Assembly (NCBI GenBank): GCA_036677375.1
Contig: JAVBWO010000012.1
Coordinates: forward strand, 420,677 to 484,676
DNA from: Bacillota bacterium
GTDB taxonomy: Bacteria; Bacillota; Dehalobacteriia; UBA4068; UBA4997
Direction of reading: 5' to 3'
Length of the DNA: 64,000 nucleotides
The notes beneath the pieces were generated by a model, which saw nothing but the letters and a program-made list of their open reading frames with translations, did not search any database and was not told the origin of the DNA. Below, in pieces: positions 698 through 61,479 of this stretch (position 1 is its first letter; each line of letters starts with the position of its first letter). The translations under genes and the position numbers were made by a program.

Positions 698-1660
698 TTA
701 TTCCGCGGACGGCTTCTTTTCGGTGAGATATTGTTCCAGACCCAGCCAAGCAACACCTGTGGCATTGTCTTTAGCATAGGACGGTGGCGTAAAAGAAAGG
801 GCGGCGGCTTTTGCCATGCGGTGTCTGAGCCGTTCTGTAAGAAAGCGGCTCCCCGCCACGCCTCCCACCAGCAAAATATCGGTGAGACCGGTGCAAGTCA
901 TTGCTTGCCGCAAAGATTTTTCCAAAGTATTGGCAATGGCAGTCAGAACGCTTTGCGCAACGGCTCCCGGCGATGCTCCCGCGGCCACCAGTCGTTGCGC
1001 GGCACTTTCCGGCCCGGAAAAGGAAAAATCCATGCCGCGAACCCAGCTTTTCAGGGCAGGCCTTTCTCCCGCATAAGCCAAAGCCAGCTCATCCAAAGCC
1101 GCGCCGGCGGGAAAAGCCAGCTGCAAGGCAACACCCACCCGGTCGATGAATTGGCCGGCCGCCAGATCGGTAGAGCCACCCAACCGGTTAACATCAAAAC
1201 CGCCCGGCTTTTTGGTTACCTCTAAAATCTCTGAGGTACCGCCGGAAAGATGCACCGCTAAAAAGCGTTCCTTTTCCGGCATGGCCGCCGTTTTAACGCC
1301 CGCCATGAGATGCCCCTCCTGATGGCTTACACAGTAAAAGGGCACATCCCAGGCAGCAGCCAAAATCCTGCCCCAATGTTCCCCCGCCCAAAAGACGGGC
1401 ATGTAAGAATCCGCCTGGGGCCGGGGACGGCTGCTGGCGCACACCCCTTTGATATCCCGGCTGCCGCCGGCCTGCCCAAGAAGCTCCTGAAACAAAGGCG
1501 CCCCAGCCTGGATATGCTGAAAGAGGGCGGCCGATTGGGCTAAGCCCCGGCCACCCTCTTTTACTTTTAATAATTTTTCCGTCTTAGCTACCAGATGGCC
1601 CTTTTCGTCCACCAAAGCCCATGAGGTAGTATAACAGCTTGTATCAATTCCCAGGATCAT
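698..1660 (-). CDS. TsaD/Kae1-like protein (ASKHA fold; paralogue found next to nusB in Clostridia)
   Basis: N-terminal LGIDTSCYTTS, SHQEGH metal motif, LSGGTSE, GQFIDRVG, C-terminal DNATGVA. Confidence 0.85.
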   Translation of the reverse strand: MILGIDTSCYTTSWALVDEKGHLVAKTEKLLKVKEGGRGLAQSAALFQHIQAGAPLFQELLGQAGGSRDIKGVCASSRPRPQADSYMPVFWAGEHWGRILAAAWDVPFYCVSHQEGHLMAGVKTAAMPEKERFLAVHLSGGTSEILEVTKKPGGFDVNRLGGSTDLAAGQFIDRVGVALQLAFPAGAALDELALAYAGERPALKSWVRGMDFSFSGPESAAQRLVAAGASPGAVAQSVLTAIANTLEKSLRQAMTCTGLTDILLVGGVAGSRFLTERLRHRMAKAAALSFTPPSYAKDNATGVAWLGLEQYLTEKKPSAE

Positions 1661-2936: not shown

Positions 2937-3326
2937 TTATTCGGCGGCAGGCTGCTCTTCTTCTGCTTGGGGGAAGATAACGCCTTGTACGTTGACATTA
3001 ATCGTGTTAACCGCCAGGCCCGTCATATTCTCTACCGCTTTTTTGACGTTTTCCTGAATCTCAACGGCCACGGTGGGGATATTGGCGCCATATTCCACGA
3101 CGATAGAAATGTCGATGGTGCAGGAGTTTTCCCCAACTTCAACTTTGACGCCCTTGGTTAATTGCTTGCGGCCCAATTTCTCGGCAATACCGCCGACAAT
3201 CCCGCCGCTCATGCCGCCGACACCATCCACATCACTGGCAGCCAATGCGGCAATGGTAGCAACCACATCGGAAGCGATCTTAACACTGTTAGAAGTTTCA
3301 ATGGTATATTCTACTTGATTTTCCAT
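2937..3326 (-). CDS. Asp23/Gls24 family protein (YqhY-like)
   Basis: VKIASDVVATIAALAA...KGVKVEV...YGANIPTVA..IQENVKKAVENMTGL. Confidence 0.93.
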   Translation of the reverse strand: MENQVEYTIETSNSVKIASDVVATIAALAASDVDGVGGMSGGIVGGIAEKLGRKQLTKGVKVEVGENSCTIDISIVVEYGANIPTVAVEIQENVKKAVENMTGLAVNTINVNVQGVIFPQAEEEQPAAE

Positions 3327-54996: not shown

Positions 54997-55134
54997 TACG
55001 TGCCTCCAAATGTGATATTATGACAAAGAACGCGTGTCACAAGCCTGTTTCAGACGATATCGTACTTATTGTACCACAAAATTTTCTAGCTGCAAATATT
55101 TCTCTGCAATTTCCTAAAAATAAGCGGTACAGGC

Positions 55135-55164
55135 AAAAAAAGCGGCGCTTCAAGCGCCGCTTTT
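55135..55164 (-). terminator. Intrinsic terminator after nrdG
   Basis: aaaagcggcgctt-c-aagcgccgctttt. Confidence 0.8.
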
Positions 55165-55185
55165 AGGTTTGACCATACAAAATAG

Positions 55186-55335
55186 CACTGTAACATCTAA
55201 AATTGTGATATAGCGGCGAGGATGGTTTGCGCAGGACAAGGTGGAGGATTGAGGAATCCTTTCTGTATTCTGATTGACGACAACACAATATTGTATAAAC
55301 AGGATCGATGTACGCAAGGATTCGGTATTACAGTG
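55186..55335. mobile_element. Putative 150-bp MITE-like palindromic element
   Basis: Terminal inverted repeats CACTGTAA / TTACAGTG, weak internal self-complementarity, no credible coding role; sits between the nrdG stop and its terminator. Confidence 0.45.
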
Positions 55336-55337
55336 TA

Positions 55338-55856
55338 CTAGGAGGCTGGGCGATAAAAGGCATGCTCCACCACTTTGCCCGCCTCCAGGGAGGCGGCCAC
55401 ATCAATGGCCCGCTGGTTTCTGGAACCACGGAAGAAAAGGTTCAAGTCCTTCTCCTTTAAAAGAAATGGCCCGTCCATCACGATCGCCGTATCGGACAAG
55501 AGTTCCTTGACATCGGAGTTCTTTTCCGCCATCTCCAGAATTTCTTCCCAGGTATAGCCGGTATAGACAAAGATATCCTTGCCCATCTCCCGCACGCCCC
55601 GCGCCAGAAGCGCGGCGGCTTTCGGCTGAGCCAGCGGCTCGCCGCCGGAAAGCGTAATGCCCTTTAACAGAGGATGCTTGGCAATCTCTTGCAGGATATC
55701 CTCCGATTGAAACAACGTGCCTCCGGCAAAATCATGGGTCTCCGGATTCTGGCAGCCGGGACAGTGATGAGGGCAGCCTTGGAAGAACACCACAAAACGG
55801 ATTCCCGGGCCGTCCACCACGCTTTCTTTCACCACGCCGGACAAACGCATCTCCAT
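55338..55856 (-). CDS. nrdG: Anaerobic ribonucleotide reductase activase NrdG
   Basis: SVVDGPGIR..QGCPHHCPGC, GITLSGGEP, RGSRNQR. Confidence 0.96.
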   Translation of the reverse strand: MEMRLSGVVKESVVDGPGIRFVVFFQGCPHHCPGCQNPETHDFAGGTLFQSEDILQEIAKHPLLKGITLSGGEPLAQPKAAALLARGVREMGKDIFVYTGYTWEEILEMAEKNSDVKELLSDTAIVMDGPFLLKEKDLNLFFRGSRNQRAIDVAASLEAGKVVEHAFYRPAS

Positions 55857-55871
55857 TCCCTCATCTCCTTA

Positions 55872-56345
55872 TTTTAATGTTCGCGTATATACTTTAGGTA
55901 TATGTCACAATTCTACCCGCGGCATTCTGGCGATCACGCATCTTTTAATGTTCGTGCATCATGATTTGTTATCTTACAAAATACTACCCGCGGTGCTTTT
56001 AACGTTCGCGCATATAACATTTATTTACCGCATGATATTACCTGCAGCGTTTTTAATGCTTGCGTATAGCTTTGCTTTACCCCAAGACACTACCCACAGC
56101 AGCTCTTTAATGTTCGCGCAGATAACATTTATTTACCTCCAGACAATACCCGCGGCTGCTTTTAACGTTCGCGCAGATAGCTTTGATTTGTCCCAAGACA
56201 CTACCCGCGGCTGCTTTGATGCTTACGCTTCTTTTAACATTCGCACATCTCAGTTTTACTATCTTTTTATCACTACCTACATTTTTCCTAAGGTTTGCGT
56301 TTTAACGTTTGCACAGATACTTTTGATTAAAAATCCTACCAAAGC
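55872..56345. repeat. Tandem array of ~54-bp bipartite non-coding repeats (about 8 full units plus orphan box-A copies)
   Basis: Box A TTTTAAYGTTCGCG-like starts at 55872, 55943, 55997, 56051, 56105, 56160, (56214), 56232, 56300; box B TACCCGCGG-like follows, mostly 42 nt after the box-A start. Confidence 0.88.
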
Positions 56346-56425
56346 CTTTTTCGCGCCTGCATATCCGCTTTTTTATGTAATACAAATACTTCACAGCGAG
56401 AACCGGATTCACAGCATCATCCACC

Positions 56426-58438
56426 CTACAGGTGGGAGACCCGGCTGTGCAATTCCGCTAATTTGGCGTCATTGAAGCGATCTGTGGTGCTGAAATATCC
56501 GGTGATCCGCCGTACCCGGCTGATTTCCGTACTGCCACAGACAGGGCATTCATCCTGGTTGATGACACCCTGATGGTTACAGGAGGTACAAAAATCAATA
56601 GGGAAATTGATGCCTGCATAACCCATATCGCAGTCCTTCATGTGGCGCAGGATGGTCTCAATGGCCTCTACGTTGTTGGACAAAGGTGACGCGATCTCCA
56701 CATAGCTGATATGGCCGGCGTCACAGTATTTATGATACGCCCCTTCTATCGCCACTTTATCAAAAAGGGAAATGGGATAATGCACCGGCACGTGGAAAGA
56801 ATTGCTATAATATTCCCGGTCGTTAACGCCAGGAATCAGACCATATTCCTTGCGGTCTATTTTCAGAAACCGCCCGGCCAGGCCTTCGGCCGGCGTGGCC
56901 AAAAGCGTATAATTCAGGTCGTGATTCTCGGCATATTCCTTCACCCGCTTGGACATATGGGAAATAATCTCAAGTCCCAGCTTCTGCGATTCCGGGGATT
57001 CCCCGTGATGTTTGCCTGTTAAAGCCGTCAAGGTTTCCGCCAGACCGATGAAGCCGATGGAAAGGGAACCGTGCCTGATGGCCTTTTCAATGGTATCGTT
57101 GGCAGCAAGCCCTTCGGAATCCAAATAGAGCTTCTGCCCCATCAAAAAGGGCATGTCCTTGACCTTCAAGCTCGCCTGCACCCGAAAGCGGTGGAAAAGC
57201 TGCCGGGAAGTCAGATCCATTACATTATCCAGCAAGCGGTAAAAAATATCGATATCGCCCTTGGCCTGAATGGCCAACCGGGGCAGATTGATAGAAGTAA
57301 AGGAAAGATTGCCCCGTTTTTCCGTAATGGCCGGACCCTTGCGGTTGGCCATCACCCGGGTGCGGCAACCCATATAGGCCACCTCGGCGCCGTAATCCCG
57401 GTTAAAGCTTGAGTCCATGAAGCTATAAGTAGGATTCATCCGCTTGCCGGTAACCCGCATGGCCAGCTGGAACAGATCATAGTTAGGATCTCCCGGATTG
57501 AAATTGATGCCTTCCTTCAAACGGAAGATTACATTGGGGAAAATGGGGTTCTCCCCATGGCCCAACCCCTGTTCATAAGCTAAAAGCAAATTCCGGGTGA
57601 CTTTACGCCCCGCCTCCGAAGTATCACAGCCCAGATTCAGGCTGGAGAAAGGCACCTGGGCCCCGGCTCTGGAATGCATGCTGTTCAAATTATAGATCAA
57701 AGCTTCCATAGCCTGGAAGACCTCATCATCGGAAGCCTCCCCGATAAAGGGGGCGATGTCCCGGTCAAAGAAAGCAAAGCTCTGGCCGCCGTGCATGTCG
57801 TTTTGGGAGCTTTGCAGGATAATCGCCGCCAAGGCGGTAGCAGAGCCTGGCCGGCGGGGCGGCCGGATATAACCGTGACCATTGTTAAAACCCCGCTGCA
57901 GCAATTCGCCCAGAGGGATCTGAACACAGGTCAGGGTCTTGGAATAAAAGTCCAGATCATGGATATGAATATCGCCGCTGCGGTGCGCCTTGGAGAACTC
58001 CTCCGGAATCAGCCGGGATAAATAATAGGTTTTGCTGGCGGCGCTGGCGATCTGTAGCATTTTCGCAGAGGGGGAATTGCTCACATTGGCGTTTTCCTTG
58101 CTGGTCTCCACCAGAATTTGCTCCACGGCATCCATCAAATCGGATCTCGCCATACGCACCCGGTTCCTGCGATCGCGGTACAAAATGTAAGCTTTGGCGG
58201 TACGGGCATGTCCATCTTCAATGAGCACCCTTTCCACCATATCCTGAACGTCTTCGACGCTGAAGATATCGGAGCCGTACTGTAGCTGCAATTCTTTCAG
58301 CACCTTAATAGTCAGTTCCATGGCCAAAGTACGGTCATTGCCACCTTCCGCCTGTGCGGCGCGAAAAATCGCGTCCGTGATCTTGCTTTCATCAAAGGCC
58401 ACCAGACGGCCGTCTCTTTTGCGTATTTGATTCACCAT
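56426..58438 (-). CDS. nrdD: Anaerobic ribonucleoside-triphosphate reductase NrdD
   Basis: N-terminal ATP cone, IHIHDLD, MGCRT, ATPAEG, CTSC..CPVC, glycyl radical loop RRITGY. Confidence 0.97.
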   Translation of the reverse strand: MVNQIRKRDGRLVAFDESKITDAIFRAAQAEGGNDRTLAMELTIKVLKELQLQYGSDIFSVEDVQDMVERVLIEDGHARTAKAYILYRDRRNRVRMARSDLMDAVEQILVETSKENANVSNSPSAKMLQIASAASKTYYLSRLIPEEFSKAHRSGDIHIHDLDFYSKTLTCVQIPLGELLQRGFNNGHGYIRPPRRPGSATALAAIILQSSQNDMHGGQSFAFFDRDIAPFIGEASDDEVFQAMEALIYNLNSMHSRAGAQVPFSSLNLGCDTSEAGRKVTRNLLLAYEQGLGHGENPIFPNVIFRLKEGINFNPGDPNYDLFQLAMRVTGKRMNPTYSFMDSSFNRDYGAEVAYMGCRTRVMANRKGPAITEKRGNLSFTSINLPRLAIQAKGDIDIFYRLLDNVMDLTSRQLFHRFRVQASLKVKDMPFLMGQKLYLDSEGLAANDTIEKAIRHGSLSIGFIGLAETLTALTGKHHGESPESQKLGLEIISHMSKRVKEYAENHDLNYTLLATPAEGLAGRFLKIDRKEYGLIPGVNDREYYSNSFHVPVHYPISLFDKVAIEGAYHKYCDAGHISYVEIASPLSNNVEAIETILRHMKDCDMGYAGINFPIDFCTSCNHQGVINQDECPVCGSTEISRVRRITGYFSTTDRFNDAKLAELHSRVSHL

Positions 58439-58462
58439 ATTCTTTCCCCCACCATTTTCAGA

Positions 58463-58981
58463 TTATTTACCGTTCTCCCGCAGCAATAATTCTTCAATAG
58501 ATCTCAGCGAAGAACCGTCGGAATTATTTCTCTCCCGCAGCATTAGCATCAGCTCGTTCATAAAAGTGCGAATATCCTCAAACTGCCGGTATACGGAGGC
58601 AAAACGTACATAAGCCACTTCGTCCACCGTACGCAGCTTCTGCATGACCAGCTCCCCGATTTCTTTTGAGGGGATCTCCCGATCCATGGTATTGCGCAGT
58701 TCCTTTTCGATGTCATTGACCATTTCTTCCAAAACGCTGAAGGGGACGGAACGTTTGTCACAGGCTTTTACCAAGCCGTTCAAAATTTTGTTGGCGTCGA
58801 AGAGCTCCCGGCGGTTGTCCCTTTTGACCACGATCAAGGGGATTTCCTCTAACCGCTCATAGGTGGTAAAGCGCTTACCGCATTGCTGGCATTCCCGGCG
58901 GCGGCGGATGCTTTTACCGTCCTCTACAGGGCGTGAATCCAAAACCTTAGAATCCTCATAACCGCAATAAGCACATTTCAT
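58463..58981 (-). CDS. nrdR: Transcriptional repressor NrdR
   Basis: MKCAYC..SKVLDSR..IRRRRECQQCGKRFTTYE, ATP cone, DEVAYVRFASVYR. Confidence 0.97.
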   Translation of the reverse strand: MKCAYCGYEDSKVLDSRPVEDGKSIRRRRECQQCGKRFTTYERLEEIPLIVVKRDNRRELFDANKILNGLVKACDKRSVPFSVLEEMVNDIEKELRNTMDREIPSKEIGELVMQKLRTVDEVAYVRFASVYRQFEDIRTFMNELMLMLRERNNSDGSSLRSIEELLLRENGK

Positions 58982-59046
58982 GAGATCCGCTCCTTCATCA
59001 TACGTATTTTAAAAATGAAAAATGCGTTTGGTGGTTTTACCAGGCC

Positions 59047-59100
59047 ATAGTACATTTTGTGCTATTATCTTATTTTAAACCACAATATATAGTATGTCAA
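59047..59100 (-). promoter_or_regulatory. Sigma-A promoter of nrdR-nrdD-nrdG overlapped by NrdR boxes
   Basis: Minus strand TTGACA-N17-TAAAAT; NrdR box CCACAATATATAGTAT at 59080-59095 in the spacer; weaker second box at 59047-59062. Confidence 0.78.
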
Positions 59101-59164
59101 GTCTTTCCAGAGGGATTTACCGGTAATTATTATCATTAAATTAATAAGCCCATTTAAACAAATA

Positions 59165-59191
59165 AATCCGGCTTACGCCGGATTAAAAAAA
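59165..59191. terminator. Hairpin / probable terminator after ylmC
   Basis: aatccggc-ttac-gccggatt followed by a T-rich stretch on the minus strand. Confidence 0.6.
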
Positions 59192-59199
59192 TATTTTTC

Positions 59200-59547
59200 T
59201 CAAGTGCCGCACGGGGGCTCCAATTCGTTTCGATCCAGATCAATCCAGCCTTCCTCCTCGTCAATATCGTATCGATGGGACCGGCGGTTCCTGGGACGCT
59301 GGGGTGGAATCTGATTGTTCAGCTCGACTAAGACCACATCCACGCCAATCTTTTTAATCTGCTGCCAAGCTATAATCAGCTCGTCGCCCCGGCTGAACAA
59401 GCCGAAAAAACGCCTTTCGCCCGGAAGCACCAAGGCCTTGATCTGTCCGGCGGCCAAATCAACTTCAATATCCCGCACCGGACCCAGCCTTTTGCCATCC
59501 TGTATGTTGACAATATCTTTGCTACGCAAATCCGATATCCGAAACAC
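59200..59547 (-). CDS. ylmC: YlmC/YmxH family sporulation PRC-barrel protein
   Basis: [33 protein letters not shown]. Confidence 0.92.
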
Positions 59548-59732: not shown

Positions 59733-60350
59733 TTATTTGTCTTCATCCAAACTACCCAGGATTTTAAAGCGGATCTTGATCTGTTCGCTTCTGCCGTTAT
59801 TGCTCATAGCGGGAACGACCTGGGTTGACACTGTGCTGGCGCCGTCCATGAAACATAAAGGCGGGAAAAGCACGCACCACCAATTTTTACCTTCTCCTTT
59901 GCCTAAAATGATACGTAACGCGTCATAGTCCCCAGCCGCCAAGAACAACTGTCCATAGGTGCGGTCGGGAAATTCATAACGCCCAAACATGCCCTTGGCG
60001 CCATAACCAGCGTCCGCCACCGTCGCCGCGGCGACGCTTTCCAAAAGTGGAATATTATCTTTCACAATGGTTTCCGCTTCTGCCTTGGTCGTCGCTTTCT
60101 CTAAGAGCGGGGTAAGCGTTTCCACCACTTTATCCCGGACAGCCAGTTTCAAAAGCTGATCTTTGGGATCGTCGCTGTTAGCGATGATATGCAGCCGTAC
60201 CGGACCCGCATTGTCCTCCGCCGCCCCTTGGGTCGGCAGCGTTTCTCCCCCCGAAGTCATCAGATAGACTCCGCAAACCGCCAGAATACAGAGGGTGGCA
60301 AAGAAGATCAGCCGTTTCTTTTGATTGCTTCTTACGATTTTACCAAACAT
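59733..60350 (-). CDS. spoIIR: Stage II sporulation protein R
   Basis: VRLHIIANSD..DQ.LKLAVRD, FPDRTYG, LRIILGKGEGKNWWCVLFPPLCF. Confidence 0.95.
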   Translation of the reverse strand: MFGKIVRSNQKKRLIFFATLCILAVCGVYLMTSGGETLPTQGAAEDNAGPVRLHIIANSDDPKDQLLKLAVRDKVVETLTPLLEKATTKAEAETIVKDNIPLLESVAAATVADAGYGAKGMFGRYEFPDRTYGQLFLAAGDYDALRIILGKGEGKNWWCVLFPPLCFMDGASTVSTQVVPAMSNNGRSEQIKIRFKILGSLDEDK

Positions 60351-60362
60351 CTTTTTTCTCCT

Positions 60363-60590
60363 TTTTAATGCTCGTGAAGTCAGCGAAAGCTTTCCTTTTT
60401 TACGCTGCCCACGGCGGTCGATACAATTCTATTTTAACATTCTCGTTTTTAACGTTCGCGCATTTACTTTGACTTGTGCACTGCATTGTACCCGCGGACA
60501 GCTTTGTATTGATCGCTTAAATTAAATGCTCCCCTATTTTTAAGGTTCGCGTACTTACCTTTAATTTCTTTATAAGATCGTACTCGCAGA
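60363..60590. repeat. Second cluster of the same bipartite repeat (3 full units plus orphan box-A copies)
   Basis: Box A at 60363, 60447, 60538 (orphan at 60432); box B at 60406, 60489, 60581 (42-43 nt spacing). Confidence 0.78.
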
Positions 60591-60661: not shown

Positions 60662-61435
60662 TTAAATAAATCGCCGCAGATTCATAAGAGCGCCTTTTTC
60701 CAGGCGGGAGACCTGGGCCTGGGAGATGCCGATTTCCTCGGCCACCTCCATCTGGGTCTTTCCTTCAAAAAACCGCAGATTGATGATTTTCTTTTCTCTG
60801 TCGCCCAAACGGCCCAAAGCGTCCTTGATGGCAATGCTTTGGGTCCACTGGCTTTCTCCAATGGTATCGTCCCTGACTTGATCCATCACGTAGATGGGAT
60901 CACCGCCGTCATTGTAGATGGGCTCAAAGAGGGATACCGGATCGGTGATAGCGTCTAAAGCAAAAACCACTTCCTCCACCGGCAGATCCATTGCCTTGGC
61001 GATTTCGTTGACAGAGGGTTCCCGGCCGCTTTCCGAAGCTAACTTGTCCCTGGCCTGCAAGGCTTTATAAGCTACATCACGAAGGGAACGTGAAACGCGG
61101 ATGCTGTTATTATCCCTCATATATCGGCGCACTTCTCCGATGATCATGGGTACAGCATAAGTTGAGAATCGGACGTTTTGACCTAAATCGAAGTTATCTA
61201 CCGCCTTAATCAAACCGATACAGCCTACCTGAAACAGATCGTCCGGATTCTCTCCCCGATTGATAAAACGCTGGATCACGCTGAGCACCAAACGCAGATT
61301 GCCGCTGATGATCTCTTGTCTGGCATGGCGGTTTCCTGCCTGCATTTCCACAAACAGCCGCCGCATGATCTCATTGGATAAAACAGGCAGCTTTGCCGTA
61401 TTGATCCCGCAAATTTCCACTTTGTTGCCTGCCAT
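60662..61435 (-). CDS. sigG: Sporulation sigma factor SigG
   Basis: NKVEICGINTAKLPVLS, DDLFQVGCIGLIKA, IRVSRSLRDVAYKAL, DPVSLFEPIYNDGGDPIYVMDQ. Confidence 0.97.
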   Translation of the reverse strand: MAGNKVEICGINTAKLPVLSNEIMRRLFVEMQAGNRHARQEIISGNLRLVLSVIQRFINRGENPDDLFQVGCIGLIKAVDNFDLGQNVRFSTYAVPMIIGEVRRYMRDNNSIRVSRSLRDVAYKALQARDKLASESGREPSVNEIAKAMDLPVEEVVFALDAITDPVSLFEPIYNDGGDPIYVMDQVRDDTIGESQWTQSIAIKDALGRLGDREKKIINLRFFEGKTQMEVAEEIGISQAQVSRLEKGALMNLRRFI

Positions 61436-61479
61436 ATTGGAAGCCCTCCCGGATCTTTTTATCATTCTTGGTCATAGGA

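Follow-up and report, generated by a model that had tools for sequence, protein, structure and literature searches.

A family of bipartite intergenic tandem repeats, apparently confined to one Bacillota lineage, with an array between nrdD and nrdG

The function of STAR elements, MIRUs and many repetitive extragenic palindromes (REPs) is a long-standing loose end in the study of bacterial intergenic DNA. Here we describe a repeat array that fills the spacer between nrdD and nrdG, the genes for the anaerobic ribonucleoside-triphosphate reductase and its activating radical-SAM enzyme, in an uncultured spore-forming Firmicute of sediment and sludge metagenomes (Bacillota bacterium, GenBank assembly GCA_036677375.1), which thus has its own interspersed intergenic tandem-repeat family. 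The window, i.e. the whole stretch of DNA analysed, comprises 64,000 nt (contig JAVBWO010000012.1, positions 420,677 to 484,676 of the forward strand), and positions given without a contig name refer to it. We conclude, with a probability of roughly 0.6, that the array is one locus of a lineage-specific, non-coding, DNA-level interspersed tandem-repeat family, probably with a bipartite protein-recognition unit. The sequence family is new but its kind is known: it is an interspersed intergenic minisatellite and not an nrd-specific device. A preliminary description, made from the letters of the window, had proposed a processed small-RNA array, helically phased protein-binding sites or a REP-like family.

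By analogy, the closest described systems are STAR elements, with MIRUs also close. The portions of PMC3532100 that treat STAR elements of Staphylococcus aureus present them as a short conserved GC-rich box alternating with a locus-specific recurring sequence of at least 40 bp, arranged directly and intergenically; they occupy numerous loci, grow and shrink, sit at places that are species-specific, and are given there as having no known function. The present family likewise consists of ten intergenic direct-repeat arrays in which boxes are conserved and interiors and linkers are locus-specific. It differs in having a pair of boxes, set a fixed distance apart, and a linker that varies, and in belonging to another Firmicute lineage; the STAR consensus printed there, T(G/A/T)TGTTG(G/T)GGCCC(C/A), does not occur in the box A/B consensus, and we see no sequence relation to it. 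MIRUs, in the passages of PMC3184786 devoted to them, are 40-100-bp units in approximately 40-50 copies, located intergenically inside operons and transcribed in polycistronic mRNA. A relative lacks them at the homologous site; they vary in unit number and are used as variable-number tandem repeats (VNTRs), and they hold small open reading frames (ORFs) overlapping the ends of adjacent genes as well as imperfect terminal and internal GC-rich inverted repeats (PMC3184786). Tandem units between cistrons, varying in number (contig evidence, nrd locus only), are common to both. Unlike MIRUs as described there, the present family, compared by description only and found in another phylum, has mixed orientation, keeps no frame and lacks inverted repeats; minus-strand ORFs in the nrdD-nrdG gap reach at most 40 aa, and none bridges nrdD and nrdG.

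REPs, in the sections of PMC3733652 that define them, are palindromes of 20-40 bp that carry a GTAG or CGTC tag left unpaired, often occur as inverted pairs and are linked to REP-associated tyrosine transposase (RAYT) genes; with the bacterial interspersed mosaic elements (BIMEs) they are extragenic, dispersed and lineage-specific, and are often located within operons and between genes that are co-directional or convergent. The earlier suggestion of a REP/BIME-like family holds for dispersal, since about ten intergenic arrays exist and the family is extragenic, present in operons and lineage-specific, but fails for structure and partner. The units are direct and non-palindromic (no inverted repeats in 55800-56480), and the genome (94% complete) contains no intact RAYT, only a broken IS200-like Y1 copy. 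In many units, box B read in reverse is CCGCGGGTAG, without a palindrome for a GTAG/CGTC-type tag. BOX elements of Streptococcus pneumoniae, as outlined in part of PMC3184786, are modular tandem box arrays, intergenic and transcribed, which are regarded there as MITE-like; a secondary structure is predicted for them, and an insertion sequence (IS) is proposed to mobilise them. They share with the present family the tandem arrangement of short boxes in Firmicute intergenic regions, whereas neither structure nor a partner element was found for the latter. Nor does the unit resemble a MITE (miniature inverted-repeat transposable element): a CGCG core is all that box A has in common with reversed box B, inverted repeats are lacking and no duplication is definable, in contrast to a true MITE-like element with 11-bp inverted ends that adjoins nrdG.

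Anatomy, conservation and distribution of the repeat

The genes around the array all lie on the minus strand, in the string nrdR, nrdD, nrdG, a YggS-type gene, sepF and ileS (Pfam, NCBIfam). The features of the locus are as follows.

58463-58981, minus strand: nrdR (Pfam, NCBIfam)
56426-58438, minus strand: nrdD, anaerobic ribonucleoside-triphosphate reductase, the upstream gene (Pfam NRDD 1.1e-193, ATP-cone; NCBIfam NrdD equivalogs)
55857-56425, no strand: nrdD-nrdG spacer of 569 bp, filled by the repeat array
56300-56345, plus strand: unit 8, 46 nt, degenerate edge unit
56232-56282, plus strand: unit 7, degenerate
56214-56229, plus strand: extra degenerate box A in a 21-nt linker, 10/16 matches
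56160-56210, plus strand: unit 6, perfect boxes
56105-56155, plus strand: unit 5; it and unit 3 form one half of a higher-order repeat (two units, 108 bp)
56051-56099, plus strand: unit 4, 49 nt, both boxes degenerate
55997-56047, plus strand: unit 3, box B degenerate (TACCTGCAG)
55943-55993, plus strand: unit 2
55925-55940, plus strand: extra degenerate box A in a 20-nt linker, 11/16 matches
55872-55922, plus strand: unit 1, in the order box A, 26 nt, box B; box A starts 1 nt beyond the ribosome-binding site of nrdG
55865-55870, minus strand: nrdG ribosome-binding site AAGGAG, 8 nt before the ATG
55338-55856, minus strand: nrdG, activating radical-SAM enzyme, the downstream gene (Pfam Fer4_12, Radical_SAM; NCBIfam NrdG TIGR02491 above cut-off)

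The array consists of eight direct units, each made up of box A (TTTTAAYGTTCGCGCA), approximately 26 variable nt, and box B (TACCCGCGG; yTAC-CCGCGG as the consensus over the family). Box A is 16 nt long (ending ...CGCGCA), and its starts at 55872, 55943, 55997, 56051, 56105, 56160, 56232 and 56300 are separated by steps of 71, 54, 54, 54, 55, 72 and 68 bp, the 71- and 72-bp steps arising because the linkers concerned hold an extra degenerate box A (as a null for such copies, at least 10/16 matches occurred in 93 of 5000 random genomic 22-mers). Box B starts 42 nt after the start of box A in six of the eight units, the exceptions being unit 4 (40 nt) and unit 8 (37 nt). The repeats are real: when the box A 14-mer TTTTAAYGTTCGCG was searched with up to two mismatches, 12 matches were obtained in the window against 1.16 +/- 1.13 expected, a count reached by none of 100 shuffles, with eight matches in the nrdD-nrdG gap and four at 60363-60551. 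The preliminary description had thus given the number of units and the A-to-B spacings correctly, for a gap taken as 570 rather than 569 bp. Tandem Repeats Finder reported periods of 55 (4.3 copies, 73% matches) and 108 (1.9 copies, 80%), the latter being a higher-order repeat of two units.

A 175-aa open frame (55948-56475, plus strand), antisense to the operon, crosses the array and reaches into the 3' end of nrdD. It has no Pfam family and is likely spurious, although automatic annotation is liable to miscall it as a gene; such arrays are spots at which assemblies and gene callers may err.

The same unit recurs elsewhere in the genome (2.80 Mb in 28 contigs). The bipartite pattern had 27 matches in the assembly versus 6, 4 and 4 in three shuffles, and curation gave 37 units in about ten intergenic arrays of 1-8 units each. 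A profile scan of the genome, which had been suggested as a check on the family, was performed with nhmmer using all 37 units, an earlier profile from the nrd units alone having been swamped by their interiors; it returned 33 matches at E up to 1, 32 of them within the ten arrays, and no further loci beyond these at that threshold. The arrays, six of which lie between co-directional genes, are located as follows.

nrdD/nrdG: units antisense to transcription
sigG/spoIIR: units antisense
biotin carrier/oxaloacetate-decarboxylase (OAD) beta: units antisense
spoIIM/xerD: units antisense
tpiA/gpmI: units sense
hom/thrB: units sense
3' of ilvC: units sense
tRNAs/cyclophilin: convergent or divergent region
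GNAT/spoIIE: convergent or divergent region
DUF4363/phosphoglucosamine-mutase-like (glmM-like): convergent or divergent region

Orientation is therefore mixed, with four antisense and three sense among the seven arrays that have one clear direction of flanking transcription; by GC skew, seven are on the lagging side and three on the leading, which is not significant. The sigG/spoIIR array also falls in the window, with its first box A 12 nt from the spoIIR start codon.

60662-61465, minus strand: sigG
60363-60589, plus strand: second array of the window, three units (60363-60414, 60447-60497, 60538-60589)
60432-60445, plus strand: partial box A within this array
59733-60350, minus strand: spoIIR

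Comparison of the units reveals that the boxes are conserved well beyond the sequence they enclose. Between arrays, box A shows an identity of 0.73 and box B one of 0.55 (0.52-0.84 in the CCGCGG columns), whereas the interior is at 0.33 and the flanks are at 0.28, a distribution at odds with the uniform divergence that had been named as the pattern of a neutral repeat; within arrays, the corresponding values are 0.79, 0.67, 0.52 and 0.36. Unit length (box A start to box B end) is 50-53 nt in 33 of the 37 units, with 15 at 51 nt, and the centres of AACGTT and CCGCGG are 41-42 bp apart, in agreement with the earlier view that boxes and spacing are constrained. Linkers range from 1 to 40 nt, giving array periods of 52-92 bp, so the 54-bp phasing is local to the nrd array. 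Units at array edges are degenerate (units 7 and 8 in the nrd array, and those that end the C15b and C12m arrays). AACGTT and CCGCGG were also considered as avoided restriction palindromes, a proposal dropped in view of unremarkable observed/expected ratios of 0.81 and 0.83.

Judging from the genomes and metagenomes compared, the family is confined to this bacterial lineage. With up to two mismatches, the box A 16-mer was found 35 times in the genome (reversed control 0) and 0-4 times in each of 50 other genomes of the order, which is not above controls (0-6); outside the arrays, box A is at chance level save for a few solo copies. The exact bipartite pattern occurs nine times in the genome and once in each of 2 of 40 relatives. 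Elsewhere, five single matches in unrelated metagenome-assembled genomes (species-representative scan) and seven in Joint Genome Institute (JGI) metagenomes are consistent with chance, in scans that may leave out records of the genome itself. The box motif strings were not found in the literature searched, in which matches were unrelated, and a literature search on interspersed or tandem intergenic repeats in Clostridia gave general repeat papers only.

Some regularities of placement were observed. The A-rich box A end (reverse strand ...CGAACRTTAAAA) directly adjoins a ribosome-binding site, that of the gene downstream, in three of the antisense arrays and in one solo copy, at these positions:

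55865-55887 of the window
60351-60378 of the window
1383-1410 of locus L009
1049-1072 of the C24 locus

Box A begins at or overlaps the upstream stop codon at the hom, ilvC, DUF4363 and tpiA loci, which were noted as sense arrays. This abutment on gene ends fits insertion into very short spacers, and a target preference is possible. Three or four of the approximately 20 genes flanking the ten arrays are early or stage-II sporulation genes (sigG, spoIIR, spoIIE, spoIIM); we know of no regulator common to these four.

Gain and unit-number polymorphism of the nrdD-nrdG array

The gene nrdG was present in 21 of the 21 genomes searched, own genome included. Among 13 loci of relatives, the nrdD alignment reaches the end in nine, with an nrdD-nrdG distance of 5-104 nt as compared to 569 here, and stops too early in the other four for the gap to be measurable. 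Given that the gap of these relatives spans only 5-104 nt, the spacer of 569 bp was gained in this lineage, and the oddly long spacer in a normally tight operon is explained by insertion of a repeat family rather than by an nrd control device. In four loci of relatives from genus g3, the last approximately 30-50 residues of NrdD form an alignment of their own, located about 140-370 nt downstream of the main one, a split that suggests, from the alignments, an insertion near the glycyl-radical domain.

Unit number at the locus is polymorphic. Contigs of the public metagenome runs X4 and X5 skip from 55878 to 56167, a step of 288 bp that runs exactly from the start of unit 1 to the start of unit 6 (five units), and an X5 contig skips from 56231 to 56300, or 68 bp, which is exactly unit 7. 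A 721-nt X4 contig from another study carries the full array with six substitutions and one 5-nt deletion. Arrays of this kind are variable-number loci that could be used to type strains of the lineage in metagenomes. A further contig joint, from 55832 to 56499, skips 666 bp from inside nrdG to inside nrdD in runs X3, X4 and X5 (depth 9-51), the shorter of its two sides having only 26 letters; it could derive from another organism or from a repeat and was left unused.

Weighing the explanations for the family

The reading that we favour is one in which a bipartite unit of 50-53 bp, joined head to tail by linkers of 1-40 bp, would have settled as founder units in short intergenic spacers, mostly inside housekeeping operons, after which each array would have grown and shrunk locally by in-register recombination or replication slippage between boxes. 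The boxes and their fixed distance would be kept by a trans-acting DNA-binding or recombination protein touching both; the 41-42 bp between AACGTT and CCGCGG correspond to approximately four helical turns and would place both on the same face of the helix. The two promoter-like sites found in 55300-56700 both lie on the plus strand (shuffle mean 1.7), and terminator-like sites were not found there; as the minus strand of the operon has neither there, the nrd array is probably read through passively, with nrdG keeping its own ribosome-binding site directly beside it. Tentatively, and in our estimate improbably, box A and box B might be half-sites of an undescribed lineage-specific DNA-binding/recombination protein that seeds units at operon junctions and uses the arrays. 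These could then be, for example, multi-site platforms for nucleoid organisation or expression tuning inside operons, a Firmicute counterpart of the REP-RAYT or REP-IHF/gyrase relationship built on a non-palindromic bipartite site. The clear signature of the unit (two boxes, fixed internal distance, free linker) offers a handle for finding such a binding protein.

Several points weigh against the favoured reading. The evidence for conserved boxes and spacing is partly circular in that units were collected via the boxes, with a regular expression that allowed 45-55 nt, and the ends of degenerate B boxes were set by eye; the box-interior contrast and the multi-unit arrays are nevertheless not products of ascertainment. 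Copy numbers are lower bounds, the assembly being in 28 contigs and 94% complete, and the binding protein is a candidate only. What we call insertion could also be growth in situ from a chance seed, and the closest relatives, at 49-59% NrdG identity, provide neither a target-site duplication nor a DNA-level empty site for comparison. The polymorphism comes from Logan contigs of depth 4-5, rather than raw reads, at the nrd locus only. The excess of sporulation genes over a random draw, noted post hoc, could hint at a function. Finally, the boxes on the reverse strand can close a short CGCG/UGCG stem in many units, and a weak RNA or single-strand hairpin may thus form.

An explanation at the RNA level, modelled on roles proposed for REP/BIME and BOX elements, would have the operon transcript carry eight hairpin units that are processed to small RNAs or that stabilise, attenuate or uncouple nrdD-nrdG expression. 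The array, lying inside an operon without a terminator-like site, is probably transcribed, and many units can close the CGCG/UGCG stem with G-U pairs. The minus-strand folding noted earlier for units 5 and 6 was reproduced at -8.7 (z -0.35) and -15.2 kcal/mol (z -2.27), the other units folding poorly, and over the 37 units the mean folding z was -0.46 on the reverse strand, below the +0.05 of the A-to-B strand. However, z fell below -2 in just 1 of 37 units on the reverse strand (nrd unit 6) and in none on the forward strand, and RNAalifold gave 0 consensus pairs on either strand. The 9-bp stem of the preliminary description paired in 69.1% of cells of the reverse-strand alignment against 67.9 +/- 1.3% when shuffled (120 of 500 shuffles reaching it), and with the partner slid by +2 columns 61.8% still paired; from these shuffle and slide results, the pairing is a by-product of the self-complementary CGCG cores in two conserved boxes. 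Rfam 15 gave 0 matches at E up to 1 in 55000-59500 on both strands, so that no known Rfam family is matched there, and at two other loci matched only a tRNA. With orientation mixed and no covariation, a processed small-RNA array, as first proposed, or any other RNA-level role seems decidedly unlikely.

More serious, although still doubtful, is a neutral or selfish minisatellite that has no sequence-specific partner and whose boxes only seem conserved through youth, concerted evolution and ascertainment. Decay of the edge units is what homogenisation without selection on each unit predicts, the array gains and loses units, a function is not apparent, and only one lineage has the family. Between arrays, however, box A retains 0.73 identity while interiors have dropped to 0.33, close to the flanks, and common descent alone would not erase the interior yet spare the boxes; moreover, unit length is held in 33 of 37 units while the linker drifts.

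Phased operators at the nrd locus, with 54 bp as about five turns, for NrdR or another regulator of nrdG are very hard to credit, despite nrdR lying directly upstream in the gene string and units 2-6 being spaced by 54-55 bp. The units occur at nine other, unrelated loci with periods of 52-92 bp, box A outside the arrays is at chance save for a few solo copies, strain variants lack five of the eight units (contig level), and relatives lack the spacer. Furthermore, box A is presumably unlike the palindromic NrdR box. Of the helically phased sites proposed in the preliminary description, then, the 54-bp period does not carry over to other arrays, while the fixed A-B distance favours a bipartite protein site. 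Least credible of all is a degenerate CRISPR-like array, with box B, linker and box A as the repeat and the interior as the spacer, or a coding repeat. Conserved and variable segments do alternate regularly as in a CRISPR, with interiors of approximately 26 nt, and a long open frame spans the array. Against the former, Cas1 was not found in the genome (94% complete), the gap had no match in phage and plasmid searches, the repeats are degenerate and variable in length, as are the linkers, and neighbouring interiors, the would-be spacers, are interrelated (within-array identity 0.52; 108-bp repeat at 80%). Against the latter, the 175-aa frame is antisense to the operon, without a Pfam family and in overlap with nrdD, and periods of 55, 59, 68, 71 and 73-77 bp are not multiples of three.

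Candidate partner elements and neighbouring repeats

No nuclease or transposase was found among the genes flanking the arrays, and no box A at contig ends. The xerD gene beside spoIIM is most simply a housekeeping recombinase, its best match being to the XerD model, below cut-off and with a partial query; we take the spoIIM-xerD neighbourhood to be ordinary by comparison with Bacillus gene order. The reverse of box A (CGAAC...) presumably shares a half-site at best with the PurBox, the Cheo/SOS box or the Spo0A box, and this likeness was not used.

A search with PF01797 identified a sole Y1 transposase locus, C28:209414-209770, which has three in-frame stops and IS200-like end hairpins and is a pseudogene. 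At positions 1350-1420 of the segment C28:207914-211270, the loop and 3' arm of its left-end hairpin read TTTTGACGTT, which matches exactly the 10 nt that open the box A variant of the tpiA-gpmI array, and a second hairpin of the pseudogene holds ACCCGC, like box B. The identity with box A may be due to chance, the genome holding 61 occurrences of TTTT[AG]A[CT]GTT. Strings resembling box A at C19:41836 and C1:199670 were dropped as unrelated because they lie inside a duplicated stretch, a plus-strand frame of which we take, by eye, to resemble the start of a small terminase subunit.

Two solo copies of box A occur in inverted orientation at C24:311554 and 313688 (positions 1055-1072 and 3172-3189 of the segment C24:310500-314700), 18 nt long, 94% complementary and 2.1 kb apart. 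They bracket a CI-like helix-turn-helix/S24 repressor and a phrog_36-type regulator; one copy is located just upstream of a small-terminase gene, and the other just upstream of a promoter-like site TTGACT-17-TATAAT (by eye) followed by tRNA-Val. The module may be what remains of a prophage or satellite and is possibly the family's source or partner, and the inverted pair could mark a source element or partner protein; we treat it as a lead rather than as evidence.

A different repeat, the MITE-like element of approximately 152 nt mentioned above, lies directly 3' of the nrdG stop (55186-55337). Rfam gave no match at this element. Its 11-bp terminal inverted repeats read TACACTGTAAC and GTTACAGTGTA, its flanks are CTAG or CTCG, and the TAG stop of nrdG is part of the flanking CTAG. 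It has 24 matches in the genome at 75-100% identity, and it accounts for the very high contig depth at 55200-55300 in metagenome runs.

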